Origin: a phage
Direction: 5' to 3' (one strand)
Sequence record: PZ534511.1
Length of the DNA stretch: 64,000 nt
In this document: positions 9,090 to 58,099 of the stretch, piece after piece
How positions within the stretch are numbered: position 1 is the first letter of the stretch
Layout: each line of letters starts with the position of its first letter
Notes under the pieces: model-generated
Database searches by the model: none
Told to the model about the DNA's origin: nothing
Seen by the model: only the letters and a program-made list of their open reading frames with translations
Position numbers and translations under genes: made by a program

Positions 9090-10130
9090 CTATGCATAAT
9101 TAACAGTGATCCATTGACCATTTACAAGTTTTTGTAAAGGTCCTGCCCAGTAGGTTGAACCACGCATCTCTTTTTTGTCACCGAAATGCCAGCCTGTGAC
9201 AACGTAGCCGTTGCGGATTGGAGATTCAGAAACGCCGTCCACAAGTCTTGCACCGATTCTGATGTCTTGCACACCTGTCTGCGGGATAGTGATCGTTACA
9301 TCACCGTTACCGTTAGCCGTCACTCCATTCACGGAGCGCACCACATTTCTGTTACCGACAACACAGTGCTGGCTTCTTACAACCATACTGTCACAACTTG
9401 CACCACCATTAACATATACTGACCCAGCCGTCAACTGACTAGCCACATTACAGTTGGTGAATGTTGCTGTATTGCTGATAGTAAGGTTATTGCACCTCAT
9501 GTTATCGACAACTTCAACATTGCCTACCACTTTCAACAGCGCACGATTAGCCGTGATCGCGTTAAGGTACATCAAAGTGAACTCTGGATTAATATCCGGC
9601 TGAGTTGGCTGGAATCTCCAACGAAACGCATCTACTGTAGATGTACCACCATCATCAAACGACCCGGTATTATCACTTAACCCAAAGTCGAGAGTTGTCT
9701 TATCTGGGCCAATAGTTGTCTCTATCCAAGCCTTATCTGTCTCGGCAGCTTTAAAGTTGATACGTTGCAACCCCAAGGGGCCTGTCATTGTATCACCTGT
9801 AACTTTTACATACCTGGCGTCTGCCTCTTCCTTAGTGATAATCCCAAGGTTTCTACGGGCAACAGGGATGTTCAAAAGATCGCTCAAGTTATTATCACGT
9901 ACCAGATAACGGCCTTCTTGAGCGGGGATCTGCTCGTCAGCAATGTATTTTGCCCAAGTTCCGAGCATATTGAAAATATAGTTAAGTTCTTCACAGGATG
10001 GCTTTTGACCAAGATCCCAACCTTTTCTCCACAAATCATCAATCGGGCGTAGCCTGTTCTGTCTGTGGGTGTTAGGCAGAACCTGATCCTCCTCTGCCCA
10101 AATCTCTAATGGAAAACTAGGTTTTGACAT
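9090..10130 (-). CDS. tail fiber/receptor-binding protein, paralog B (346 aa)
   Basis: Shares N- and C-terminal segments with 7032..8078 (MSKPSFPLEIWAEEDQVLPNT ... QKLVNGQWITVNYA); divergent central region. Confidence 0.45.
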   Translation of the reverse strand: MSKPSFPLEIWAEEDQVLPNTHRQNRLRPIDDLWRKGWDLGQKPSCEELNYIFNMLGTWAKYIADEQIPAQEGRYLVRDNNLSDLLNIPVARRNLGIITKEEADARYVKVTGDTMTGPLGLQRINFKAAETDKAWIETTIGPDKTTLDFGLSDNTGSFDDGGTSTVDAFRWRFQPTQPDINPEFTLMYLNAITANRALLKVVGNVEVVDNMRCNNLTISNTATFTNCNVASQLTAGSVYVNGGASCDSMVVRSQHCVVGNRNVVRSVNGVTANGNGDVTITIPQTGVQDIRIGARLVDGVSESPIRNGYVVTGWHFGDKKEMRGSTYWAGPLQKLVNGQWITVNYA

Positions 10131-10142
10131 TTTATCTCCTGA

Positions 10143-12215
10143 TTATGAGAAGTCTGGAGGGACAACATCTTCTACATACCCTTTCAGAGCAACCTGCCCC
10201 ATATGAAGCACGGTAGAATCTCTGGCTGTAACAGTGATGCTGTCAGACATTACTTGCGGGTATGCCCACACATACTGTTTTACCTCAGGGTATCTATACT
10301 CTATGGTTGCCATGTTTCCGCAGATACATCTCCATAAAAATTCTTGGTAATTCCTGGTTGGGTCGTAGCCATATACCGGAGCAAGCTCTTTACTAGGAAC
10401 GAACCCTGCAAGGTATTGTATTTCAGACGGTTGCCAACCTAACTTAACGATAGGTATGTTTACAGACTCTTTTGCCTTTTCAATACCTCCCTGCATCACC
10501 CAATCGTAGCACTCGGTGCAGAAGAAATCAAGAGCACCTGCTTCTTTTTTATATTGGTCAGCAAGGTTCAGCTTTTGCGTAAGCTCTGTTTCCATAATGG
10601 TTGGGAAAAACAGCAGAGCTGTCATCTGAGCTGATGCAGCGTGTGCCTTTATTGCCTTTGAAATGGCCGCAATACGAGCGCCAAGCTTACCACGACAAAA
10701 TGCTACATACTTGTCGTAAACACCGCCAGTTTTAGGATCGTCAATAGTCCCAATATCTAATGCATACTCACCTGTCTCATCATAAAACGCCTGCTTTGTA
10801 GGGTAATCATAAATACAAGGTCTACGAGTATCGGTATTGTACCACCACCACGGTTCACCAACCTGCATAATCACTGGCAGGTTGTTTCTCATAGCGGCTG
10901 ATGCAAAATTCTTAAATACTGCAGTAAGGAAATTCATACCCTCTTCAATGGTTGGAGACAGGAGGTAGCTACAGGGTGTATACCCTGTTTTAGCGTAGTT
11001 ATCGTTCCAGTCTCTTTGGGTCCATTCCAACGGGCAGGCATCGCTGAAAAGCTCAAAACTTACAGATTGCATAACGTCGAAGTTATGTCGTTTGGCATTG
11101 TACATAAAATCATCATGCCATTTATAAGCTGCAGCGTTTAGCGCCCCTGTTCTGTTTATAGACCATTGGGTTCCTGACCATGTGTAGTCATAATAATGAC
11201 TCATACCAACATAATGGTTTATGGTTCCGGTATAGCCCAGACGCTTGATATTGTTCAACACCCTTAAAGGAGATACGTTCCACATATCGTCATATGCGGT
11301 GCAGATCCCAACGTCGTGCTCTTTAACCTGAATATTGTTAAGTTGCATCATTTTCCAGCCTGTGTCTGGCTGGAGCAGATCTAGGCGCAACTCACACTCT
11401 ACATTTTCCGTTCTCGGGTCTGTGCTATTACTTACCCAGTCTTTAGGCATAAGCGGTATTAAAATCCTTCTCACCTGTCGAGGATCAACACCCATCATGT
11501 TGTTGTTCTGATCCATCCCGACGCAGTCCTCGAAATCAATATGAATCTCTGCAACATTCTTATCCTCTGAGATGCTGACAGCATATTGAGCTAAAGGAAC
11601 ATAGATGATTGTGCCATCAACAAGGTCTACAGTCATAATCATCTTTTCAGGGGTGGAGAAGTTGCTGGCATTGGTTATTGACATTCTGAACCAAAGCTTG
11701 GTGTTTCTCATCTCATAGTGATCATCAAACCCAATACCGAAATGGTCATACTTGTCAACTGTTTCCCAAATGCACCCAGCCATACCTCCATATGTTCTTG
11801 ACACTAAACGGTTAATACAACAGTTGTTATCTGCAACAATACAGGTACTTTCAGTCTGCTGAGTAGTTGTAACCCAATACCTTGGGTGAAACATTCTCTC
11901 CTCAACAGTATCCCAAGATATCCTGTCAAGATTCTCATCTGAAACTATTGTACATTTCGCCCTTTGTGTTCCAATCATCACCCCTTGAGATTTTGATGAA
12001 AACTCCATAAAGAAGCTTCTTGGCAACCTGTTGGGTAATTTGTCAACAATTTCCACTGGGATCTCAATACTGGTTGCCCCAATTGGGATAGTTACATCAC
12101 CCTCAACATGATTATAATCCCTACCAGGAACGGCAGTATCCTGAACTGTGCGGTAATGAAACCGTGCAGCCATTGTAGAGTAATCACGGTAAGGTTTAAA
12201 AATAGCTGTTGCCAT
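10143..12215 (-). CDS. tail/baseplate structural protein (690 aa)
   Basis: ORF track; position between baseplate and fiber genes; Trp/Tyr-rich, no enzymatic motif recognised. Confidence 0.35.
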   Translation of the reverse strand: MATAIFKPYRDYSTMAARFHYRTVQDTAVPGRDYNHVEGDVTIPIGATSIEIPVEIVDKLPNRLPRSFFMEFSSKSQGVMIGTQRAKCTIVSDENLDRISWDTVEERMFHPRYWVTTTQQTESTCIVADNNCCINRLVSRTYGGMAGCIWETVDKYDHFGIGFDDHYEMRNTKLWFRMSITNASNFSTPEKMIMTVDLVDGTIIYVPLAQYAVSISEDKNVAEIHIDFEDCVGMDQNNNMMGVDPRQVRRILIPLMPKDWVSNSTDPRTENVECELRLDLLQPDTGWKMMQLNNIQVKEHDVGICTAYDDMWNVSPLRVLNNIKRLGYTGTINHYVGMSHYYDYTWSGTQWSINRTGALNAAAYKWHDDFMYNAKRHNFDVMQSVSFELFSDACPLEWTQRDWNDNYAKTGYTPCSYLLSPTIEEGMNFLTAVFKNFASAAMRNNLPVIMQVGEPWWWYNTDTRRPCIYDYPTKQAFYDETGEYALDIGTIDDPKTGGVYDKYVAFCRGKLGARIAAISKAIKAHAASAQMTALLFFPTIMETELTQKLNLADQYKKEAGALDFFCTECYDWVMQGGIEKAKESVNIPIVKLGWQPSEIQYLAGFVPSKELAPVYGYDPTRNYQEFLWRCICGNMATIEYRYPEVKQYVWAYPQVMSDSITVTARDSTVLHMGQVALKGYVEDVVPPDFS

Positions 12216-48337: not shown

Positions 48338-48414
48338 TGGTCTCCACGGAGTGATTCGAACACTCGACCTCCTGATCCCAAATCAGGCGCTCTACCAAGC
48401 TGAGCTACGCGGAG
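48338..48414 (-). tRNA. tRNA-Pro (anticodon UGG)
   Basis: Manual fold: acceptor CUCCGCG/CGUGGAG, D-arm GCUC/GAGC, anticodon loop UUUGGGA, T-loop UUCGAAU, CCA encoded. Confidence 0.8.
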
Positions 48415-48425
48415 TATTTATTATT

Positions 48426-48500
48426 TGGTGGCCCTGGGTGGAATTGAACCACCGTCTGGCGATTATGAGTCGCTTGCTTGAACCTTCCAGCTACAGGGCC
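48426..48500 (-). tRNA. tRNA-Met or tRNA-Ile2 (anticodon CAU)
   Basis: Acceptor GGCCCUG/CAGGGCC, anticodon loop CUCAUAA, T-arm GGUGG-UUCAAUU-CCACC, CCA encoded; G1-C72 suggests elongator type. Confidence 0.75.
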
Positions 48501-48501
48501 A

Positions 48502-48577
48502 TGGTGCTGATAGCAGGACTCGAACCTGCAACCTATTGATTACAAATCAATTGCACTACCAATTGTGCTACATCAGC
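48502..48577 (-). tRNA. tRNA-Thr (anticodon UGU)
   Basis: Acceptor GCUGAUG/UAUCAGC, anticodon stem-loop AUUGA-UUUGUAA-UCAAU, T-loop UUCGAGU, CCA encoded. Confidence 0.8.
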
Positions 48578-48582
48578 AAAAA

Positions 48583-48681
48583 GGTGCTAGGTGATGGAAT
48601 CGAACCACCTATGTATTCAACGACTACCTCGTCTATTTTCAGGATTAAAAATCCTCGCCCTTGCCAAAGGGCTTACCTAGC
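48583..48681 (-). tRNA. atypical tRNA-like gene (about 99 nt; identity unresolved, CCA not encoded)
   Basis: Perfect 7-bp acceptor (GCUAGGU/ACCUAGC), D-arm GCCC/GGGC, T-arm GGUGG-UUCGAUU-CCAUC, but about 47 nt between D- and T-arms containing AGGAUU-UUU-AAUCCU hairpin and a second GACGA-GGUAG-UCGUU hairpin. Confidence 0.45.
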
Positions 48682-48779
48682 TCAGTATGTTGACCATGTT
48701 GCTAGTCGGCGATGACGACTGTAACATTTGATAATCCGGTTCTGCTTCCGGCTTTCGCTTAATTACAAGGTCAACAATA

Positions 48780-48870
48780 TGGCTGAGGGTAATGGAATCG
48801 AACCATCATCGAGTCATCCTCAACGGGACGGTTTTCAAGACCGCTTGAGCACCATTGCTCCCTACCCTCA
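48780..48870 (-). tRNA. tRNA-Ser (anticodon UGA), type II
   Basis: Anticodon stem-loop GCGGU-CUUGAAA-ACCGU, long variable arm (UUGAG-GAUGA-CUCGA), T-loop UUCGAUU, discriminator G, CCA encoded. Confidence 0.75.
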
Positions 48871-48984
48871 TTTATAAACAATACTGATAATGACACTGAT
48901 TTTCGAGCAGTTAGTGACTAGTATAAACGACGATAAATATCAATGCCATTATCTGTATGATTTATGCATTTAAAAATGTAAATT

Positions 48985-49071
48985 TGGTGGGGAGTGGTGG
49001 AGTCGAACCACCCGAGTCGCAATGACAATAGATTTACAGTCTACACCGCTACCTCTACGGGATAACTCCCC
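48985..49071 (-). tRNA. tRNA-Tyr (anticodon GUA), type II
   Basis: Acceptor GGGGAGU/ACUCCCC, anticodon loop CUGUAAA, long variable arm, T-loop UUCGACU, CCA encoded. Confidence 0.8.
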
Positions 49072-49075
49072 AATT

Positions 49076-49150
49076 TGGCACCCCGTACTGGACTCGAACC
49101 AGTGTCAACGGCTTAGAAGGCCGCTGCTTTATCCACTAAGCTAACAGGGC
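49076..49150 (-). tRNA. tRNA-Arg (anticodon UCU)
   Basis: Anticodon stem-loop GCGGC-CUUCUAA-GCCGU, T-arm ACUGG-UUCGAGU-CCAGU, acceptor with two G-U pairs, CCA encoded. Confidence 0.7.
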
Positions 49151-50248: not shown

Positions 50249-50458
50249 TCAACAGATTCCGGCCTTATCTCGCCTGTCTGCGTATTCTTTAATCGCAACC
50301 TCCTCTGCATTGGTGACTAAATCTTCAAAGTAACTCTCAAGCTCCTCGTCAATGTCAGGAAACCAACTCTTTTTCCTGTCAGTGTGAATCGCAGACTTGT
50401 TGAATTTATTACAGTTCTTTGCTACCGGATTATTCATTAATAGCCCCTCAGCGTTCAT
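50249..50458 (-). CDS. hypothetical protein (69 aa)
   Basis: ORF track only. Confidence 0.3.
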   Translation of the reverse strand: MNAEGLLMNNPVAKNCNKFNKSAIHTDRKKSWFPDIDEELESYFEDLVTNAEEVAIKEYADRRDKAGIC

Positions 50459-51026
50459 AGTAAATCTTATTTAACATTACCTCATCCTTTGCAGAAAGAA
50501 TACCGAGATATGCATCACCGAACCTGCCTGCAACAACCTCTACATGATACATCACTTCGTTAATATCGTCAAGAGTGATAACTGGATGACCGTATCTCTC
50601 TGAGTATTGTCTCAGAGTGCGATGTAGGGAATCATCATCGTAGGCAGACTTTTTAATATCACAAACACGACGAATAGCCTTGATGTCGAAAAACCCTGTG
50701 CGATACCAACCAAGAAAAAGGTTTCGTGCAGTGTCAACACCTACATCAACACCGTCAAGAACCTTATCTACAAGATAGCTGTCATCCTTTGGACCTGCTT
50801 CCTTAGTTCGAATGTAGTTGCCATCTTTTCCAGGTGACAGCTCCTTCTCATCACCAACCTGAATGCCATCATTTGGCGGTGTTAACCACTTATCCGGATG
50901 CTTACGATCACGAGCGTTAGAATGATTACGCTGGAAACCTGGCTTCCACTTGAAAGTTTTCTCCATCTGTTCTTCATTCTGATAACGTTTTGCAATCTTT
51001 TCACGGTCATCTTTGCGTGGACTCAT
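50448..51026 (-). CDS. hypothetical protein (192 aa)
   Basis: ORF track; no recognisable motif. Confidence 0.35.
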   Translation of the reverse strand: MSPRKDDREKIAKRYQNEEQMEKTFKWKPGFQRNHSNARDRKHPDKWLTPPNDGIQVGDEKELSPGKDGNYIRTKEAGPKDDSYLVDKVLDGVDVGVDTARNLFLGWYRTGFFDIKAIRRVCDIKKSAYDDDSLHRTLRQYSERYGHPVITLDDINEVMYHVEVVAGRFGDAYLGILSAKDEVMLNKIYYER

Positions 51027-51530
51027 AGCTGCCTCCTCTTCAAGTTATAGAAAAACTCACTGTATCGCTTTGTAACGAGCTTTTCTATCAAACTGGTGCG
51101 ATTGCCTTACCTGATATAGTTTATATAGCTGTGGAGCGATTTAGGGGCCTTCTTGTCCGTTTCCACACATAAACTTCATCCAAGCTCGCGCGGGAGACTC
51201 TCAACCGACTCCTTCCGGCGCTGGCAAGCTTTCGTCGGTGGTCCACATCAGTGCTCGGCCTTTGGCCTGCGCTATCGCTTCGCTCCCACACATGTTAACA
51301 GACCTGCATGTATGCACTTCTGTTATTGTGTGCACCAGAGAGGCCCGGCATCTCGCCCCTCGTAGGCGAGTGCCAATGAAGGGCCGACACTACCAATAGT
51401 AAGTAATAAATTTAAAACATGGTACTTAGGATCTAATATATTCTACATAAGTTAAGTATATGTACTTAGTACCATAAGTACTAGATCTTTTGTTTTTTAT
51501 TATTTAGTTATTTTAGTTATATTCTTTATG

Positions 51531-51611
51531 TGTCCGTATCACGGACAGTTAGTGTCCGTATTACGGACAGATTTGTCCGCGTGACGGACAGTAGTGTCCG
51601 TATCACGGACA
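51531..51611. repeat. array of four phased 17-bp palindromic sites (TGTCCG-N5-CGGACA), putative operator/iteron array
   Basis: tgtccgtatcacggaca (51531-47), tgtccgtattacggaca (51553-69), tgtccgcgtgacggaca (51574-90), tgtccgtatcacggaca (51595-611); centre spacing 22/21/21 bp; flanked by AT-rich segment. Confidence 0.8.
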
Positions 51612-51686
51612 GTTACTAACCTCTGTTCCAGAGCGAACATAAAACATACGAATCCTTATAGTACAGATATTTAAGTTTTTACTGGT

Positions 51687-52037
51687 CTAACCAGTTGTTG
51701 ACATTCGAATAACTTCTTCTGGTGGCAAAACTTTGGAAAATGTGCATCTTTTACCTCTCCCTTGTGTGGATATTTCAACCACTCCCGCACATTCTAAAGT
51801 TTTAACGCACGCTGCTGCTTTTGTTTTCTTTATTCCAACATCTGCTGCAATTTTCCTTGTGCTGGGTGTGAAGCGTGAACTTCCTCCAAGCTTATACCAG
51901 TTGTGCAGGTAGCAGTATACGATCTTGTCATACAAGTCAAGAACAACAACCTCCCCAGTTGTGTCATTCAAAACTTTTGACATAGACAGTATTTCAAGGG
52001 GGACTTTAAGATATAGCAGCTTATCCCCATCTTTCAT
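51687..52037 (-). CDS. small helix-turn-helix DNA-binding protein (candidate binder of adjacent palindromes)
   Basis: 116 aa; HTH-like segment TRKIAADVGIKKTKAAACVKTLECAGVV; gene ends 76 bp from palindrome array. Confidence 0.4.
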   Translation of the reverse strand: MKDGDKLLYLKVPLEILSMSKVLNDTTGEVVVLDLYDKIVYCYLHNWYKLGGSSRFTPSTRKIAADVGIKKTKAAACVKTLECAGVVEISTQGRGKRCTFSKVLPPEEVIRMSTTG

Positions 52038-52084: not shown

Positions 52085-52639
52085 TTACTCCCCGCTGTCA
52101 ATAGCAAAACTCATTGCAATACGGTATGCCTCTTCTAATGGTAAGAGTCTCCCCCACACATCCCAACCGACATCAAACTGTCTGCCAAACAACTGTTGTG
52201 TGGTTCCGTGAGCATGACCGAACAGTTGGACTGATCCGTGAGGCTTTCTGTTCCACTTTGCAAACTGGTAATGGCTCATACAGATCAAATTCTTGTTGTG
52301 GCGAAGCTCGTAATAATCTACAACCTCATGACCGAACTCTTTCATAATTCTGACAGTCGTCCTTGTGTCATGGTTGCCACGAACAAGAATAATATGTCCG
52401 TTCAACATATTTAGAATATCTGGAAGTAAGTTGTTGATATTCTTATCATTAGTGCACGCAATATCTCCCAAGTGGAACACAGTGTCTGCAGGTGACACAA
52501 CAGAGTTCCATTCGGCGATGATTCCCGCATTCATACTGTCAAGATTGTGATCATACTGAGATCTGTGTTTTTGACATGAATCAAACTCCATGACCCGCTG
52601 GTGGAGAAAGTGTGTGTCGCTTGTTACAAAGTATTTCAT
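52085..52639 (-). CDS. calcineurin-like metallophosphoesterase (Ser/Thr phosphatase or 2',3'-phosphoesterase type)
   Basis: Motifs DTHF (D-x-H), HLGDIACTND (GD), VRGNHD (GNHD), GHAHG; start trimmed to ATG 52637-52639 with GAGGA RBS. Confidence 0.7.
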   Translation of the reverse strand: MKYFVTSDTHFLHQRVMEFDSCQKHRSQYDHNLDSMNAGIIAEWNSVVSPADTVFHLGDIACTNDKNINNLLPDILNMLNGHIILVRGNHDTRTTVRIMKEFGHEVVDYYELRHNKNLICMSHYQFAKWNRKPHGSVQLFGHAHGTTQQLFGRQFDVGWDVWGRLLPLEEAYRIAMSFAIDSGE

Positions 52640-52646
52640 ACATTCC

Positions 52647-53184
52647 TCATTTAAGTTTAATGCAGTTTTTAAGCTGGCGTTCCATACGATCCACAACCTT
52701 GTCTGGAACATCATGAATGCTTTTATTGCCGTGGCGGTTTTCAACCACGATCACGGTATAACTATACCCATGACTGATTGCCATGTCAACATATTCCTGC
52801 ACATGTTTTTCTTTTGTAAACGTATTACTTACCACGATACGGTCGTATCCCATACGCATCATATCTTCTACGTTATCTTTCGGTATAACTATACCCATGA
52901 CTGATTGCCATGTCAACATATTCCTGCACATGTTTTTCTTTTGTAAACGTATTACTTACCACGATACGGTCGTATCCCATACGCATCATATCTTCTACGT
53001 TATCTTTGCACCATTTCGCTGCGAGTGTTACTTTACTTGCATCCCAGTTGTAATTGCCGTCATCGTCATACCAGAACATGTCGTTCTCAAAATGTGGATA
53101 CAGACCCTCTAAAGATAGCGCATTTGCCAGTGTTGATTTGCCAGACCCTGGTAGACCACGCACGATATATAGCATTTTAGACAT
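52647..53184 (-). pseudogene. P-loop polynucleotide-kinase-like gene (T4 Pnk kinase-domain-like) disrupted by 127-bp tandem duplication
   Basis: Walker A GLPGSGKST after ATG 53182-53184 (GGAGG RBS); reading frame breaks at duplication junction, producing two overlapping ORFs (52873..53241 and 52647..52931) that both encode KDNVEDMMRMGYDRIVVSNTFTKEKHVQEYVDMAISHGYSYT. Confidence 0.6.
52754..53007. repeat. perfect tandem direct duplication, 2 x 127 bp
   Basis: 52754-52880 is identical to 52881-53007 (cggtataactatacccatgactgattgccatg...tcttctacgttatcttt), checked base by base; unit length not divisible by 3. Confidence 0.9.
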
Positions 53185-53212
53185 AGTGACCCTCCGTTTT
53201 AATTTCAACGAT

Positions 53213-53241
53213 AGTATACCTAACTGTTTTGTTAATTTCAA
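53213..53241 (-). promoter_or_regulatory. sigma70-like promoter for kinase/phosphoesterase genes
   Basis: Minus strand TTGAAA (plus 53236-53241), 17-nt spacer, TATACT (plus 53213-53218). Confidence 0.4.
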
Positions 53242-53244
53242 GTG

Positions 53245-53274
53245 TTGACACTAGGTTATTTGTGTGGCAGGATA
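53245..53274 (+). promoter_or_regulatory. candidate divergent promoter for RNA ligase operon
   Basis: TTGACA at 53245-53250; weak -10 candidates 17-18 nt downstream (caggat/aggata). Confidence 0.3.
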
Positions 53275-53302
53275 GACTGACAAAATGACAAATGAGGAAC
53301 GT

Positions 53303-54220
53303 ATGATGAAGTATTTTAATGCAGACGACCTAGTTGACAAAGGTCTTGTAACCAGTAGGTATTACCCAGATCTGGGGTTAAAGATCTATAAATATGCTAG
53401 AAAAGTATTTTACAACAATTTATGGTATTTGTCCCCTCGTTTACTGGAGTGCCGAGGCATTGTTGTAGGTAATGAAGGAAATGTTGTGGCATGGCCCTTC
53501 ACAAAAGTGTTTAACTTGGGAGAAAACTCCACCAACCTGCCTGACAATAAGCTTGTGACTGCGGTAGAGAAAAAGAACGGATTCCTTGGTGTGGTATCAT
53601 CTCATAAAGGTGACCTATTGTTCTCAACAACCGGGTCTCTTGATTCTCCATATTGTAACCTTGCAAAGGAAACCATCCAAGAGCAATGTGGTAATTTAGA
53701 TCTTATCAAGAAGGTTATGGGCAATGAAAACATGACATTCATGTTTGAAATTTGTCACCCTTCAGATCCGCATATTGTTCAAGAAGACCATGGCGCATAT
53801 TTGATAGGTTGCAGATATAATGATTCTGGAATAATGCTACCAGAAGCAGCTTTAGATGGGATTGCCAAATACCTTGGTGCAAAACGTCCTCTCACTGTGC
53901 GTGAAATCCCGTTCAGCTATGCAAAAGAATTAGCCGCAGAAACAAGGGGCGAAGGGTATATGATCCGTAAGCCTTACTACCCTTATGACCTGCAGCTGAA
54001 GATCAAGTCTCCATACTATTTGGCACGGAAGGCCGTAATGAGGGGTAAAGCTTGGAAGATTTGGGATGATGATATCTTTAAACGTATTGACGAAGAGTTT
54101 TACGGCATGGTAAACTTCATTCGTAGCAATTACACAGAAGATGTGTGGAACTGCCTCCTGGAGCAGGAACGCCGTGAGATACTTGATTGCTATTTTCACA
54201 ACGAGGACTATATGCAATGA
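53303..54220 (+). CDS. RNA ligase, T4 Rnl1 (RnlA)-like
   Basis: Recalled alignment to T4 Rnl1: LLECRGIVV ~ ALECRGIMF, TKVFNLGEN ~ EKFFNLNEN, nucleotidyltransferase motif I EKKNGF ~ TKEDGS; start set at ATG after GAGGA RBS (track start 53285). Confidence 0.7.
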   Translation: MMKYFNADDLVDKGLVTSRYYPDLGLKIYKYARKVFYNNLWYLSPRLLECRGIVVGNEGNVVAWPFTKVFNLGENSTNLPDNKLVTAVEKKNGFLGVVSSHKGDLLFSTTGSLDSPYCNLAKETIQEQCGNLDLIKKVMGNENMTFMFEICHPSDPHIVQEDHGAYLIGCRYNDSGIMLPEAALDGIAKYLGAKRPLTVREIPFSYAKELAAETRGEGYMIRKPYYPYDLQLKIKSPYYLARKAVMRGKAWKIWDDDIFKRIDEEFYGMVNFIRSNYTEDVWNCLLEQERREILDCYFHNEDYMQ

Positions 54221-54567
54221 AGAAGTTGATTGTGTGGCTGGATGACTTGAGAGATCCGTCAAATTACGGAATCCAAAATGCTCTTTGGCTGAAGAACTCT
54301 TCTGAGTTCATGGATTTTATTAACGATAATAGAAAGCTCTACAGGCGCGTTTCTGAGTGGCATTTTGACAGCGATTTAGGAGAAGTCTTAGAAGGGTACG
54401 ACTGTTTCTGCATGTTAGAGGAAAAATTTGTATTTGGTAAGCCTCCTGTAGTTGACAACGTGAAGATTTTCGTGCACACTTCTAATCCATCAGCGGCTCG
54501 TAAATTCATGCTTGCAGCTGACTCGTTTAAAAAGTTTGGAATAGAGATTAAACAAAACATCTACTGA
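54217..54567 (+). CDS. hypothetical protein (116 aa)
   Basis: ATGA overlap with RNA ligase stop; MKKLIVWLDDLRDPSNYG; no motif assigned. Confidence 0.4.
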   Translation: MKKLIVWLDDLRDPSNYGIQNALWLKNSSEFMDFINDNRKLYRRVSEWHFDSDLGEVLEGYDCFCMLEEKFVFGKPPVVDNVKIFVHTSNPSAARKFMLAADSFKKFGIEIKQNIY

Positions 54568-54575
54568 GGACACTT

Positions 54576-55337
54576 ATGCGACGACTGATTATTATCTCCG
54601 GTGCTGGTTTGAGCGCTGAATCTGGTATTCCCACTTTCCGATCTGGTAGCACTGCAATGTGGGAGAATTTCAGCATCGATGAGGTGTGCAACATCCACAC
54701 CTTTGCCAAGAACTACTATAAGGTGCATGACTTTTACAATGCACGCCGTGTAGCTCTGGGCAGTGTTGATCCTAACCTTGCGCATCTCCGGATCGCTGAG
54801 TGGTATTCCCGCTGGCCTGGCCGTGTGATCAATCTTACCACCAATGTAGATGATTTGCTGGAGCGTGCTGGTGTAAAACATGAAGATATTCTACATGTCC
54901 ACGGGTATTTGCCAGAAATAGTCTATGAGGACGATGAAGGAAGTAACGTCATTAAGGACATTGGATACTCTGAGGTAGATCCAGGAAAGTATATCTGGGT
55001 TAAGCCTAATGTGGTGTTCTTCGGAGAAGTAGCTCCGAAGTATACAGACATGTACGACCTGTTGACTTCCCTTACGAGTAATGATATGGTTATCCTTGTA
55101 GGGTGTTCCAACACAGTTATCAATTTTAACTGGGAGCTATTCCCTGCCTGCAATAAGGGAACCAAACTGCTGATCGTTAACAAATACGACTCACAGCATC
55201 TAGAGGAGAATGGCATTTCACGTAGTGATATTTACCAGTACGAGGATCGCGGCATCCCAGTTTGGTTTAACGGGGCGGTTGACGCTTTCTCTGATAAAAC
55301 ATTCATTGAGACCGTAGAAAACTTTATGGAACTTTAA
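54576..55337 (+). CDS. SIR2-family (sirtuin-like) NAD-dependent protein
   Basis: Sirtuin signature GAGLSAESGIPTFRS, PNLAHLRIAEW, TTNVDDLLERAG, catalytic-type HG in LHVHGYL; no obvious Cys4 zinc ribbon. Confidence 0.7.
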   Translation: MRRLIIISGAGLSAESGIPTFRSGSTAMWENFSIDEVCNIHTFAKNYYKVHDFYNARRVALGSVDPNLAHLRIAEWYSRWPGRVINLTTNVDDLLERAGVKHEDILHVHGYLPEIVYEDDEGSNVIKDIGYSEVDPGKYIWVKPNVVFFGEVAPKYTDMYDLLTSLTSNDMVILVGCSNTVINFNWELFPACNKGTKLLIVNKYDSQHLEENGISRSDIYQYEDRGIPVWFNGAVDAFSDKTFIETVENFMEL

Positions 55338-55350
55338 AAGGAGACCTTTA

Positions 55351-56064
55351 ATGCTGAATACTAAACTGATCGACAACCTGGAAAAACTGTCTCAGCCTGA
55401 AAACTACCTTTGGTCTGCCAACTGGGTGGAAAACTGGAACCGTGTGGCAGCTAAAGTGAAAAAATCATACACACCATTCGAATTACAGCTTAGCTTCATT
55501 GAGGAAGAGTTCAATGAAGTTTTGGAAGAGCTGGAGAAAGGTGATGGTGGAGATCACCTGCTAAAAGAGGCCTGCGATCTTCATGTTGTCACAAGTTATG
55601 CCGCTTATCTTGTTAATGATAATCACGAAAAGTGGTCAAACCTGTTTGATAATCCGCGAGGTCTTAAGTTCAAGATCGGTGAGTTCTATGATACACTGAT
55701 CGCTGCGAAAAACACCTCTAAGCAAAGAGCATCCGCTTACCGCTTAGCAGAGTTGTCAACAGCTTTGCTGTTCCAGCTTCGCGGCGATGTGTGCGGGATG
55801 ATGCGTAAGGTTCTCAAATCTAATGACAGCAAGTTTGCACGGGTCAACCATCTACGGTATTCACACGGTGCCAGTGCAGATATGCCTGCTGAACAACTCA
55901 TCGAGTTGGAGATTAAAGATCTTGAGCGACGCTTTGATGGTAGATATGAAGGTTTTGTTGCTAAGGAAGAATTCTACAACGGTAATAAAGTTATCATATT
56001 TCTTGACAGTAAAGGTAAGATCATGAAGCCTTCTAGCTTCAAGGATGTAACAGAGTATATTTAA
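55351..56064 (+). CDS. MazG-like nucleoside triphosphate pyrophosphohydrolase
   Basis: EExxE-type motif FIEEEFNEVLEELEKGDGGDHLLKEACDL. Confidence 0.5.
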   Translation: MLNTKLIDNLEKLSQPENYLWSANWVENWNRVAAKVKKSYTPFELQLSFIEEEFNEVLEELEKGDGGDHLLKEACDLHVVTSYAAYLVNDNHEKWSNLFDNPRGLKFKIGEFYDTLIAAKNTSKQRASAYRLAELSTALLFQLRGDVCGMMRKVLKSNDSKFARVNHLRYSHGASADMPAEQLIELEIKDLERRFDGRYEGFVAKEEFYNGNKVIIFLDSKGKIMKPSSFKDVTEYI

Positions 56065-56071
56065 CAACATA

Positions 56072-56100
56072 GCCGGGATTACCCGGCTTTACTTGTTGTG
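56072..56100 (+). terminator. candidate rho-independent terminator after MazG-like gene
   Basis: agccggg-atta-cccggct hairpin (56072-56089) followed by ttacttgttgt. Confidence 0.4.
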
Positions 56101-56106
56101 GAAAGT

Positions 56107-56436
56107 ATGCAAGTGAGGCAGATAGTTATGTACAAGCACTCTAGAGATCTTGAAAACGATGCTGTGTTTGGGGATCAGATGAAAGAGTTGGTTAAACTCA
56201 TAGGCAGGATAGAGGATAAGTTTGACACTAAAATCTACATCGACAGCAAAGTATTCAACCACAAAATATGGACAAATCTGTGTGTTGGACTGCATGGAGA
56301 TAAAGATGTGGTAAATTTAGTTGTAATTAAGTTCATAGTGTGGCAGAATAAAACTATAAACTATTACGATCCACACCTGCTTGTTTACCCGATAAAAGAC
56401 CTATTAGATAAGGAGGACTGCAATGCCGTTATTTAA
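56107..56436 (+). CDS. hypothetical protein (about 109 aa)
   Basis: ORF track; first ATG used (track start is GTG at 56098). Confidence 0.3.
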   Translation: MQVRQIVMYKHSRDLENDAVFGDQMKELVKLIGRIEDKFDTKIYIDSKVFNHKIWTNLCVGLHGDKDVVNLVVIKFIVWQNKTINYYDPHLLVYPIKDLLDKEDCNAVI

Positions 56437-56692
56437 TCTTGCTAAACCTGTAGAAGCACACCAGTTTGACGGAAGCTCTTCATCAGTATCTGATCTGCAA
56501 CGGTGGATTGATACAGGTGTGTTTACATCGTCACCTGTTCGGACCAGAGATCTTCGTCGTATGTGTGAGCTTGTAGAGCCGTTTGGTAACCTAGTCTTGT
56601 ACCAGGGTGATTGGCTTGTTGATTTTATGGGGGACTGGTTGGTAATGAGTAAAGAAGAGATGTTTAAAATTTTTAAGGAAGAGGTAGAGTAA
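56423..56692 (+). CDS. hypothetical protein (89 aa)
   Basis: ATG with AAGGAGG RBS. Confidence 0.4.
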   Translation: MPLFNLAKPVEAHQFDGSSSSVSDLQRWIDTGVFTSSPVRTRDLRRMCELVEPFGNLVLYQGDWLVDFMGDWLVMSKEEMFKIFKEEVE

Positions 56693-57975
56693 TGCATCAA
56701 ATCAAAACAACACTGTACGCACTGAACAAAGATGGCAGCTACCAACAGTGGAAAGTATTCACGGATGGTGATAAGGTTATCGTAGAGTTTGGCAAGCTTG
56801 ATGGTAAACTGCAATACAAAGAGACGATCTGCACACCTAAGAACGTGGGTCGTACCAATGAAACTACAGCTGAGCAACAGGCCGAGCTGGAAGCGATCAG
56901 TAAGTGGGAAAAACAAGTCCGTCTGGGGTATGTTGAAAACATGGAAGATTGCGAGCAGGGTGTTGACCTTTTACCCATGCTGGTGCATGACTACCTGAAG
57001 CGTGGCAAGGCACTTAAATTACCTTGCTGGATCTTGCGTAAGTTAGATGGCCTTCGTCTGCTTGTTGTTTTCCAAAATGGTGAGCCTAAATTTATTTCCC
57101 GTGGTAATAAGTCCTACCCTATTCAAGGAAAGCTTTTAGAGCAACTTCGTTCTTTCCATTCTACCACTGGGATTAAACAACTTGATGGGGAACTATACAT
57201 TCATGGTCTTCCTTTGCAGAAAATAGTGTCTCTTGCAAAACGGTGGCGCACACAGGAAGAGATTCAGGCCGAGATCGATAAAGACTATGAGGCAGATAAA
57301 AAACGCCGTCATGCAGCAATTAAGGCAGGCTTATCAACATACAAAAACTTCAACAAGATAGATATTCCTGTCGATGTTGAGCCTGTTCGTGATGATTTGC
57401 GTTACGGTGGGTACTGTAGCTACGATCTGGAGTATCACATTTTTGATATTCCTAGCGACAAGGTGTGGTGGGATCCAGAAACAGAGTCTGGACGCTGCAA
57501 GGATCTTATGGATGCAGAGGATACCGTTACCACTCTGATGCTTGACCATATCAAGGTTGTTGACGCAGAGCTTGCGTACACAGTTGATCATTGCGAAGAA
57601 TCTGTTGGTATATTCATGTCCGAAGGATATGAAGGTACTATCATGCGTAATTTCTGCGGTAAATACGAGTACGGTCAGCGAACATCTGAAGCATTGAAAT
57701 GGAAAAAGTTCAACGACGCAGAGGTGAAAGTTATTGACGTTGAGAAAGATAAGAATGATGAAGGTGTTCTTATCTGTGTTGACAAGGAAGGTGTTATTGT
57801 TAAAATGAAGATGAAAGGCACGCACGAGGAGCGTAGCTATGACAGGATGCAGGAAATGATCGGCAAGTTTGTCACCTTCAAATATCAATCAAGGACAGAA
57901 GACAACAACTACCAATTCCCTGTCGGTATCTGCGTCCGAAATGTTGACCCAGACACTTGGGAGGTTCTGGAATGA
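56692..57975 (+). CDS. ATP-dependent DNA ligase (T7-type)
   Basis: Adenylation motif I KLDGLR within LPCWILRKLDGLRLLVV; 427 aa; GAGG RBS. Confidence 0.7.
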   Translation: MHQIKTTLYALNKDGSYQQWKVFTDGDKVIVEFGKLDGKLQYKETICTPKNVGRTNETTAEQQAELEAISKWEKQVRLGYVENMEDCEQGVDLLPMLVHDYLKRGKALKLPCWILRKLDGLRLLVVFQNGEPKFISRGNKSYPIQGKLLEQLRSFHSTTGIKQLDGELYIHGLPLQKIVSLAKRWRTQEEIQAEIDKDYEADKKRRHAAIKAGLSTYKNFNKIDIPVDVEPVRDDLRYGGYCSYDLEYHIFDIPSDKVWWDPETESGRCKDLMDAEDTVTTLMLDHIKVVDAELAYTVDHCEESVGIFMSEGYEGTIMRNFCGKYEYGQRTSEALKWKKFNDAEVKVIDVEKDKNDEGVLICVDKEGVIVKMKMKGTHEERSYDRMQEMIGKFVTFKYQSRTEDNNYQFPVGICVRNVDPDTWEVLE

Positions 57976-58099
57976 TGTAGGAAGGTTTAGTAGGTAACGG
58001 TAGCCAATCGAATGATGGTTTTTCAATTGGCACCTACATAACCACACTGTGTAGTGTTGTTGATCTGGTTAGTTATGAGTAAACTGGAGAGTATGAAAA

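Follow-up and report, generated by a model that had tools for sequence, protein, structure and literature searches.

Several described systems are close to the locus studied here. [quoted passage not shown] For its sirtuin, removal of RNA 2'-phosphates with NAD+, in the manner of Tpt1/KptA, has been predicted (PMC9503650). In the literature library searched, work on phage sirtuins was limited to comparative genomics; experimental work was not found. The proposed functional analogue of the phage sirtuin is Tpt1/KptA, which in fungal and plant tRNA splicing acts together with 2H/Macro clean-up enzymes. As in those systems, a putative NAD+-dependent step would be associated in the phage neighbourhood with a ligase of the Rnl1 family, a kinase and enzymes for cyclic phosphates. 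Any relation would be one of functional analogy and not of membership: the Rossmann fold of the sirtuin is unrelated to the ART fold of Tpt1/KptA, the sirtuin is acidic, and its neighbours include neither a 2H nor a Macro gene (the closest relative has a macro-domain gene at a distance of ~87 kb).

The locus lies in a 64,000-nt stretch of phage DNA (the window) from a Vequintavirus, an rV5-like E. coli phage with 96–98.6% identity to over 100 phages in GenBank, in which these genes have already been annotated. Its gene set is identical to that of V5/Mydo, and nothing essential differs from the published description; in Vequintavirus the kinase and phosphoesterase genes are inverted onto the other strand, the pyrophosphatase gene is located directly 3' of the sirtuin gene, and in this window the kinase gene is broken by a 127-nt duplication. 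The locus is real and already known: its genes are annotated, and the phage genus is well sampled. As a scan result it is ordinary; its value is that of a clean, compact operon in which the published prediction can be tested.

Three close-packed plus-strand genes at 54217–56064, encoding the cREC protein, the sirtuin and an all-alpha NTP pyrophosphohydrolase, form one compact unit with the preceding ligase gene (Table 1). Ligase and cREC genes overlap by 4 nt (ATGA, combining the cREC start with the ligase stop codon), the next gaps measure 8 and 13 nt, and a terminator-like hairpin closes the unit 3' of the pyrophosphatase gene. The kinase and metallophosphoesterase genes (52085–53184, minus strand) are divergent and situated upstream of this unit. 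Both the coordinates of the three reading frames and their adjacency to RNA-repair genes had been given correctly in a preliminary description of this DNA. An Rfam scan of the window returned tRNAs only.

Table 1. Features of the ligase–sirtuin locus and its upstream genes (window coordinates).
Feature	Position	Strand	Evidence
Calcineurin-like metallophosphoesterase	52085..52639	-	Pfam Metallophos_2 2.2e-06, Metallophos 8.1e-06
P-loop polynucleotide-kinase-like gene (AAA_33), split by frameshifting duplication	52647..53184	-	Pfam AAA_33 7.2e-09
Perfect 2 x 127-nt tandem duplication within kinase gene	52754..53007	.	Repeat search: 100% identity, spacing 127
T4 Rnl1-like RNA ligase, first of four-gene unit	53285..54220	+	Pfam RNA_lig_T4_1 2e-14
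cREC (cyclic-phosphate processing receiver-like) protein, 116 aa	54217..54567 (ORF 54217-54567)	+	Pfam PF20274 1.1e-13
Zinc-less class-III-like sirtuin, 253 aa	54576..55337	+	Pfam SIR2 1.3e-26
All-alpha NTP pyrophosphohydrolase (MazG/HisE/dimeric-dUTPase superfamily), 237 aa, C-terminal beta-hairpin	55351..56064	+	
Terminator-like G+C hairpin + T-rich tail	56071..56088	+	Terminator scan: 7 pairs, 6 G-C

A T4-type healing-and-sealing set, consisting of an Rnl1-family ligase, a 5'-kinase and a 3'-phosphoesterase, is encoded together at this locus and is kept in 13 IMG/VR loci. This arrangement resembles the T4 Pnkp-Rnl1 system, which counters the PrrC anticodon nuclease and likewise belongs to a lytic myovirus. 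It differs from T4 in that kinase and phosphatase are separate proteins, in the use of a metallophosphoesterase as phosphatase where T4 has a HAD enzyme, and in the additional cREC, sirtuin and pyrophosphatase genes. The Rnl1-like ligase, annotated as 'RNA ligase' in relatives, is carried by 830 phage records; PDB sequence searches with the ligase and with the kinase gave nothing useful. In relatives the kinase gene is one intact 411-nt CDS. In the window as sequenced it is split into two reading frames (52873–53184 and 52647–52931) by the frameshifting tandem duplication, and a 611-nt query aligned to only 484 nt in each of the 12 best relatives. The metallophosphoesterase, an intact 555-nt CDS in the closest relative (WLY85562.1), matched aq_1665 in the PDB (1.2e-10) and adjoins the RNA ligase in the 13 IMG/VR loci. 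It is a candidate RNA 3'-end healing enzyme, for removal of 2',3'-cyclic or 3'-phosphates.

The 253-aa protein is a true sirtuin that lacks the zinc ribbon and has a complete set of NAD-binding and catalytic residues. Its Pfam SIR2 match (PF02146) scored 94 bits, with the cut-off at 24, and covered profile positions 1–178 of 180, and the sirtuin signatures quoted in the preliminary description were all present: GAGLSAESGIPTFRS at residues 9–23, TTNVDDLLERAG at residues 88–99 and HG at residues 109–110. The homologue alignment showed a conserved NAD-binding loop GAGxS (G9-A-G11-x-S13), and across 31 aligned sequences G9AG..S, F21 R22, Y54..R57, N90 D92, H109 G110 and FFGE were invariant. Y54 and R57 align to Y102 and R105 of SIRT5, which bind anionic substrates; all 31 aligned homologues retained the Y54-x-x-R57 motif, and a lenient motif search found Y-x-x-R in all 117 homologues examined. 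The Cys4 zinc ribbon, whose apparent absence had been remarked upon earlier, is indeed missing. The protein contains three Cys residues (38, 177 and 192), with none between the catalytic H109 and F148 of the FGE motif, and no CxxC was found in the corresponding interval of the 117 homologues. In the AF2 model (pLDDT 89), a beta-hairpin at residues 110–128 occupies the position of the ribbon.

Profile and structure comparisons, which had been suggested as a check, placed the protein inside the SIR2 fold and in a deacylase-like class III. The model, with its Rossmann fold, matched CobB (Foldseek 1.4e-18, TM 0.75–0.83), the best sequence matches were SIRT5 (1.7e-20) and CobB (2.4e-20), and the NCBIfam profile 'NAD-dependent protein deacylase' matched with 3.4e-35. 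With CobB and SIRT5 the protein shares the fold, GAGxS, the N/D pair, the catalytic His, FGE and the anion-binding Y-x-x-R motif. It differs from them by the hairpin of ~30 residues in place of a Cys4 zinc ribbon of ~55, by scores below the NCBIfam CobB cut-offs (121 bits vs 243 for NF001753; 102 vs 320 for NF040867) and by the essentially phage-restricted distribution of its clade, for which a scan of genome contigs gave only two MAG loci and thus no operon context from cells. SIR2 was the only domain detected with Pfam, and the ART-fold domain PF01885 of Tpt1/KptA was not found. The protein is acidic (pI 4.9; family median 5.05).

The 116-aa protein between RNA ligase and sirtuin, previously listed as unknown, has a known domain, cREC_REC (PF20274; 52.1 bits against a cut-off of 27), which was also carried by 20 of 20 full-length homologues. 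Among 14 homologues, D9 D10, D51 D53, H87-T-S-N-P91 (including T88 and S89) and K96 were invariant. The active site is acidic and receiver-type, with the Asp phosphoryl-transfer residues of receiver and HAD proteins kept; no kinase sensor that could serve as a histidine-kinase partner was annotated in the genome of the relative. It is the presence of cREC, for which phosphodiesterase activity is predicted, that connects the sirtuin with the chemistry of cyclic phosphates and ADP-ribose. A 162-aa ORF at the cREC position in one locus (L040) was considered as a divergent cREC and rejected, as it showed neither similarity nor a Pfam match.

The third protein had been described as a MazG-like pyrophosphohydrolase. 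Its placement in the all-alpha superfamily was upheld, whereas its predicted structure was nearest to dimeric dUTPases and not to MazG proper. Dimeric dUTPases, MazG and HisE are reportedly united in one all-alpha NTP pyrophosphohydrolase superfamily, a grouping said to go back to Moroz and co-workers in 2005. The protein is a helical bundle with an EExxE ... ExxD metal-binding motif. Among 47 relatives, 10 matched Pfam MazG (PF03819) and 34 PRA-PH (PF01503); the window protein itself matched neither, and the family profile hit HisE in the PDB with an E-value of 0.015. From other members of the superfamily the protein is set apart by an additional beta-hairpin at its C-terminus, which is conserved in the family (R198, Y199, K223, K226) and lies outside the 133–149 residues that align to dUTPase, MazG and HisE structures. 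We know of no MazG-type enzyme that cleaves ADP-ribose. In its distribution, the pyrophosphatase follows the sirtuin no more closely than it follows DNA ligase.

Sirtuin neighbourhoods in other phages were compared with that in the window. The 13 IMG/VR loci (44–58% sirtuin identity) have the gene order MPE-Rnl1-(cREC)-kinase-SIR2-DNA ligase-orf89-MazG-like, unlike that of the window. On a metagenomic contig, a sirtuin gene lies in an Rnl1 cluster, less than 500 nt from a gene for a pyrophosphatase of only ~26% identity; two short metagenomic contigs with distant pyrophosphatase relatives had uninformative context. In T5-like phages the sirtuin gene is followed by one for the RNA-repair phosphatase HAD_SAK_2 (2.3e-20; 28 of 60 loci). 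Jumbo phage phAPEC6 encodes SIR2, a Nudt16-like Nudix enzyme and cREC in tandem, with no ligase nearby. Because the phAPEC6 trio carries a Nudix enzyme, the combination that recurs is sirtuin, cREC and a pyrophosphatase, in which Nudix and all-alpha enzymes replace each other.

Coupling of sirtuin and ligase across phages is loose. In the T5-like IMG/VR loci no ligase match lay closer than 10 kb to the sirtuin, and these loci, together with the organisms and record lengths in the hit lists, indicated that T5-like phages apparently do not have an Rnl1-type ligase. Conversely, most Rnl1-bearing phages (Pseudomonas, Streptomyces) apparently do not have this sirtuin, as judged from the make-up of the hit lists rather than record by record. 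Of the 60 sirtuin loci, 14 showed no recognisable partner; one example is Justusliebigvirus alia, in which sirtuin and ligase genes are 30 kb apart. The sirtuin neighbours in KVP40 and Justusliebigvirus had no informative domains.

We tentatively propose that cREC, sirtuin and pyrophosphatase may constitute an NAD+/ADP-ribose branch of a phage module for RNA end-healing and sealing. The sirtuin–HAD_SAK_2 pairs of T5-like phages and the sirtuin–Nudix–cREC trio of the jumbo phage support a link between NAD/ADP-ribose chemistry and RNA-end repair. The place of the sirtuin inside the Rnl1 clusters of the 13 IMG/VR loci and of the metagenomic contig, the invariant Y-x-x-R motif, the phosphoryl-transfer residues of cREC and the near restriction of the sirtuin clade to phages also speak for the proposal. 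The opinion in the preliminary description that the function cannot be read from sequence was too pessimistic, since conserved gene context yields a specific, published hypothesis (PMC9503650).

In this proposal, which follows Iyer et al. (2022), cleavage of tRNA or mRNA by host metal-independent RNases would produce termini with 2',3'-cyclic phosphate and 5'-OH. The cyclic phosphate would be opened by a phosphoesterase (cREC or the metallophosphoesterase), the 5' end phosphorylated by the kinase and the break sealed by Rnl1. The sirtuin would take off a remaining 2'-phosphate with NAD+, as Tpt1/KptA does. The 2'-phosphate would attack C1'' of NAD+, with nicotinamide as leaving group; the 2''-OH, activated by His109, would then attack the phosphodiester. 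The products would be 2'-OH RNA and ADP-ribose 1'',2''-cyclic phosphate. By established enzymology, the 1'',2''-cyclic ADP-ribose intermediate of sirtuins parallels the second step of the Tpt1 reaction. cREC would open the ADP-ribose cyclic phosphate and the all-alpha pyrophosphatase would cleave the pyrophosphate derived from ADP-ribose, a Nudix enzyme filling the equivalent slot in jumbo phages. In its most specific form, which is possible and somewhat more doubtful than the general proposal, the zinc-less, class-III-derived phage sirtuin would be an NAD-dependent RNA 2'-phosphotransferase convergent with Tpt1/KptA, with Y54 and R57 holding the phosphate and with cREC and pyrophosphatase disposing of ADP-ribose 1'',2''-cyclic phosphate.

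Several observations speak against the proposal. The sirtuin keeps every residue expected in a lysine deacylase and has CobB and SIRT5 as nearest sequences and structures, and its acidity sets it apart from the basic, RNA-binding Tpt1. Kinase, metallophosphoesterase and Rnl1 already suffice for repair of the T4 type, in which no 2'-phosphate is left. The phyletic coupling is loose and 14 of 60 loci are partnerless; ADP-ribose cleavage is not known from MazG-type enzymes, and the pyrophosphatase follows DNA ligase at least as closely as the sirtuin.

Alternatively, and rather improbably, the sirtuin would be an NAD-dependent lysine deacylase like CobB and SIRT5, with desuccinylation or demalonylation as the probable activity in view of its Y-x-x-R motif. 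It would alter the acylation state of phage or host proteins in the course of takeover, and its linkage to RNA repair would be regulatory or incidental. cREC and pyrophosphatase would then clear O-acyl-ADP-ribose, as cellular Nudix and esterase enzymes do. This explanation is consistent with the SIRT5, CobB and NCBIfam deacylase matches, with the invariance of all catalytic and acyl-lysine-tunnel motifs (F21 R22, N90 D92, H109, FFGE, Y54/R57), with an acidic pI, unremarkable in protein deacylases, and with sirtuins that occur without ligase in T5-like phages and in the 14 partnerless loci. However, scores were far under the NCBIfam CobB cut-offs, and the zinc ribbon, to which all characterised deacylase sirtuins owe the shape of their peptide cleft, is missing from 117 of 117 homologues. 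Moreover, the recurring neighbours (Rnl1, kinase, MPE, HAD_SAK_2, cREC and Nudt16-like Nudix genes) encode enzymes that act on RNA ends or phosphates and not on protein modification. The residues of cREC are those of Asp phosphotransfer and not those of an esterase, so that a phosphate-containing ADP-ribose product fits better than an acyl product.

It is unlikely that the four-gene unit merely groups independent nucleic-acid housekeeping genes of the early/middle region, in which case the 'MazG-like' protein would be a house-cleaning enzyme of the dUTPase/dCTPase type and cREC alone would work with the ligase. Against such a lack of common pathway stand the co-orientation of the genes within a terminator-bounded unit, the 4-nt overlap that couples cREC to ligase, and the ~26%-identical pyrophosphatase, whose gene is still no more than 500 nt away from the sirtuin gene of an Rnl1 cluster. 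The Nudix pyrophosphatase in the equivalent place beside sirtuin and cREC in the jumbo phage, and the conserved C-terminal hairpin beyond the dUTPase/MazG/HisE alignment, point in the same direction.

A counter-defence function independent of RNA repair, be it depletion or rewiring of NAD+, destruction of Thoeris/TIR cyclic ADPR or action on alarmones, is highly improbable: linearisation and cleavage of cyclic ADPR-type messengers by cREC and pyrophosphatase is conceivable, and has been raised for cREC (PMC7824862), the jumbo-phage trio has no ligase nearby and the sirtuin clade is phage-restricted, but RNA-end enzymes dominate the contexts, the sirtuin is single-domain and deacylase-like class III, nothing indicates (p)ppGpp specificity, and signal degradation would leave the NAD-using sirtuin without a task. 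The sirtuin shares its superfamily and NAD+ substrate with defence SIR2 NADases (ThsA, DSR1/2, SIR2-HerA, SIR2-pAgo); unlike these, it is encoded by a phage and not by the host, stands among RNA-repair genes and has no sensor or partner domain (SLOG, HerA, pAgo, TIR). When cREC, sirtuin, pyrophosphatase and ligase were scanned with PADLOC, none matched a defence family (best for the sirtuin 0.034, to an unrelated candidate), upon which the reading as a defence-type SIR2 NADase was dropped. From the preliminary description, an NAD/ADP-ribose role in phage–host conflict is retained as the best reading, while the likeness to NADase effectors is not, given the class III deacylases CobB and SIRT5 as closest relatives; its alarmone-directed variant found no support, with dimeric dUTPases as the nearest structural match of the third protein.

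Should the published prediction hold, the phage sirtuin would represent a second solution, unrelated to Tpt1, for removal of RNA 2'-phosphates. It would be the first sirtuin with a nucleic-acid phosphate as substrate and would widen sirtuin chemistry beyond acyl-lysine, while cREC, together with a pyrophosphatase that is all-alpha in the window and a Nudix enzyme in jumbo phages, would represent a previously unseen route for disposal of ADP-ribose 1'',2''-cyclic phosphate. More than 1,000 sequenced phages (among them T5-like, V5-like and jumbo phages) would then spend NAD+ on RNA repair, which would bear on why hosts defend themselves by NAD+ depletion.

The region 53000-58000 has matches in 122 GenBank phage records, 90-99% identical in nucleotide sequence, with Escherichia phage 241Ecol014PP (Vequintavirus, 98.6%) as top match and rV5-type phages beside it. 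The sirtuin and RNA ligase were each 100% identical at the protein level to those of 241Ecol014PP, in which the four genes are labelled RNA ligase, 'cyclic-phosphate processing domain-containing protein', 'NAD-dependent deacetylase', and 'nucleotide pyrophosphohydrolase'; the pyrophosphatase was 100% identical in several V5-like phages. The locus is real and correctly placed, but represents a known, already interpreted neighborhood in a heavily sequenced phage genus. It has been proposed that the sirtuin acts on RNA 2'-phosphates in a KptA-like manner, while cREC and other enzymes open cyclic phosphates or process ADPr>P (Iyer et al., 2022; PMC9503650). Experimental work on any phage sirtuin was not found in the literature searched.

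In GenBank relatives, propagated annotation errors label the pyrophosphatase 'putative Sir2-like protein' (phages ime, navn, nimi, pangalan, and others) and the kinase 'putative phosphoesterase', and one sirtuin homologue in Klebsiella phage vB_Kpn_3 carries the name 'tail assembly protein'. In these genes, approximately 18-25 'Campylobacter phage' records (GenBank MG0656xx, host C. jejuni) share 93-100% identity with V5-like or phi92-like phages of E. coli, which suggests mislabelled hosts or contaminating coliphages.

The stop codon of the Rnl1-like RNA ligase gene overlaps the cREC start codon (ATGA). Gaps of 8 nt (cREC-sirtuin) and 13 nt (sirtuin-pyrophosphatase) follow, with a Shine-Dalgarno sequence at each. 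Divergently upstream of the ligase unit lie genes for a polynucleotide-kinase-like P-loop protein (AAA_33) and for a phosphoesterase of the calcineurin-like type (MPE). The kinase gene is frameshifted into 103-aa and 94-aa pieces by a tandem duplication that was not present in the 12 best related phages and stems either from an error of assembly or from an inactivating mutation private to this phage; this apparent disruption is an addition of the present work.

Features of the sirtuin operon and its surroundings
Feature	Coordinates	Strand	Remark
Seven phage tRNA genes (Pro, Met, Thr, Ser, Tyr, Arg)	48338-49150	-	4-5 kb from RNA-repair operon
Perfect tandem duplication, 2 x 127 nt	52754-53007		Within - strand kinase gene (52647-53184)
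cREC gene	54217-54567	+	116 aa
Sirtuin gene	54576-55337	+	253 aa
Pyrophosphatase gene	55351-56064	+	237 aa
Terminator-like hairpin, G+C-rich	56071-56088		3' of pyrophosphatase
orf112 (112 aa), PHROG 7684	56098-56436	+	Between pyrophosphatase and DNA ligase
orf89 (89 aa), PHROG 14585	56423-56692	+	Between pyrophosphatase and DNA ligase

Within the tRNA cluster, a 99-nt tRNA-like element (48583-48681) yielded an odd 4-nt anticodon call and an Rfam tRNA score of just 35.5 bits; the closest relative annotates just four tRNAs at the corresponding region. Between a 192-aa ORF (50448-51026) and a 'replication initiation protein' homologue (51687-52037), approximately 650 nt (51030-51690) held nothing but short overlapping ORFs on both strands and no Rfam match, and the sole CDS annotated there in the relative spans 102 nt. 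In distant phages, orf112 and orf89 accompany the RNA-repair/DNA-ligase cluster, upstream of the phosphoesterase gene and after the DNA ligase gene, respectively. The closest relative (OR062943.1) also encodes, approximately 87 kb from its sirtuin, a 122-aa macro-domain protein (125324-125692), which may process ADP-ribose-1''-phosphate or O-acyl-ADP-ribose.

The preliminary description had placed the three ORFs exactly and recognized a sirtuin that seemed to lack the zinc ribbon, and both assignments were confirmed. The 253-aa protein matched Pfam SIR2 (1.3e-26) and PHROG 2162 (6e-110), its nearest sequences in the PDB were SIRT5 and E. coli CobB (~2e-20), and its AlphaFold model (pLDDT 89, pTM 0.87) superposed on CobB (Foldseek E 1.4e-18, TM 0.75-0.83). 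Across 31 homologues, F21, R22, N90, D92, H109-G110, and the FFGE motif were invariant, and the GAGxS loop was invariant or almost so. The protein contains three scattered Cys, none of them between H109 and F148, and has approximately 30 residues at the zinc-ribbon position, where SIRT5 has approximately 55; the model shows a beta-hairpin at residues 110-128. CxxC was found in this interval in 0 of 117 homologues. Y54 and R57, invariant in aligned homologues, align to SIRT5 Y102 and R105, which in class III sirtuins grip anionic acyl groups; Y-x-x-R was recovered in all 117 when searched for with a lenient motif. Clade-wide loss of the zinc ribbon alongside this invariant pattern is a further addition of the present work.

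The 116-aa protein, previously described as unknown, proved to be a cREC domain (Pfam PF20274, 1.1e-13, 52 bits versus a cut-off of 27), as defined by Iyer et al. in jumbo phages (2021; PMC7824862), with invariant receiver-type residues (D9, D10, D51, D53, H87-T-S-N-P91, K96). The pyrophosphatase had no Pfam match of its own. An exhaustive profile search retrieved 166 clusters of full-length relatives; among 47 scanned, 34 matched PRA-PH (HisE) and 10 MazG, so that the earlier label 'MazG-like' names the superfamily correctly and is imprecise at the subfamily level. An alarmone substrate, also suggested earlier, found no indication. N30, E53, D76, N158, K161, K223, and K226 were invariant and E52, E56, R198, and Y199 almost so. 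In its confident model (pLDDT 94) the protein is nearest to dimeric dUTPases, and it has a conserved C-terminal hairpin; both points are additions of the present work.

A tentative reading, the best supported although short of even probability, is that in RNA end repair these genes supply an NAD+/ADP-ribose branch. Via ADP-ribosyl transfer, the sirtuin would remove a 2'-phosphate, with His109 promoting attack by the ribose 2''-OH. This step would have counterparts in the bicyclic intermediate of sirtuins and in Tpt1 step 2, a parallel inferred from established enzymology. cREC would then open ADP-ribose 1'',2''-cyclic phosphate or RNA>p, and the pyrophosphatase would break down the ADP-ribose product. 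A phosphate-bearing substrate fits the invariant Y-x-x-R, the Asp-based cREC chemistry, and loss of the zinc module, which shapes the peptide cleft.

Against RNA end repair, the sirtuin keeps all deacylase residues and is nearest to CobB and SIRT5. The rival reading of a CobB-like desuccinylase or deacetylase, with O-acyl-ADP-ribose clean-up, is doubtful. Its acidic pI (4.9) also counts against RNA end repair, as does the complete T4-type pathway already formed by kinase, MPE, and Rnl1. Moreover, cleavage of ADP-ribose is not known from any MazG-type enzyme. That the genes are housekeeping genes unrelated to one another, the third protein being the phage's dUTPase, is unlikely; the OR062943.1 genome contains no annotated dUTPase. 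The counter-defence module directed at NAD or a signal, put forward in the preliminary description, is improbable; a PADLOC search gave no match.

Loose phyletic coupling is a further point against the RNA end-repair reading. Phage records numbered 1013 for the sirtuin and 830 for the Rnl1-like ligase, and their overlap, judged by which organisms and record lengths make up the two match lists, lies mostly in approximately 320 pyrophosphatase-bearing V5-, Mydo-, and phi92-type records. T5-like IMG/VR loci carry the sirtuin, with no Rnl1-type ligase found within 10 kb, Pseudomonas and Streptomyces phages carry the ligase without this sirtuin (by organism counts), and in Justusliebigvirus alia the two lie 30 kb apart.

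Among 60 sirtuin-encoding IMG/VR loci examined, 13 showed MPE-Rnl1-(cREC)-kinase-SIR2-DNA ligase-orf89-pyrophosphatase, an order that differs from the window in placing the sirtuin between kinase and DNA ligase. T5-like loci (28/60) showed SIR2-(60-aa ORF)-HAD_SAK_2-DUF7415-DUF7415, whose HAD domain is a 'Swiss-army-knife' RNA-repair phosphatase (2.3e-20), and 14 had no recognizable partner. A metagenomic contig with a pyrophosphatase only ~26% identical retained MPE-Rnl1-AAA_33-x-x-SIR2-x-x-pyrophosphatase, followed by a Band_7 gene. On metagenomic phage contig L064, the Band_7/SPFH gene (9406-10311) lies directly downstream of a distant sirtuin/Rnl1/pyrophosphatase cluster; SPFH modules were reportedly put forward as RNA-repair scaffolds by Burroughs and Aravind in 2016. 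Jumbo phage phAPEC6 has SIR2-Nudix(Nudt16-like)-cREC and lacks a ligase within 5 kb of it. All three published context types were reproduced independently, and substitution of Nudix and all-alpha pyrophosphatase for each other beside sirtuin and cREC is an addition of the present work. The locus survey therefore identified sirtuin, cREC, and pyrophosphatase as the recurring core, which is joined to RNA-end enzymes in several lineages.
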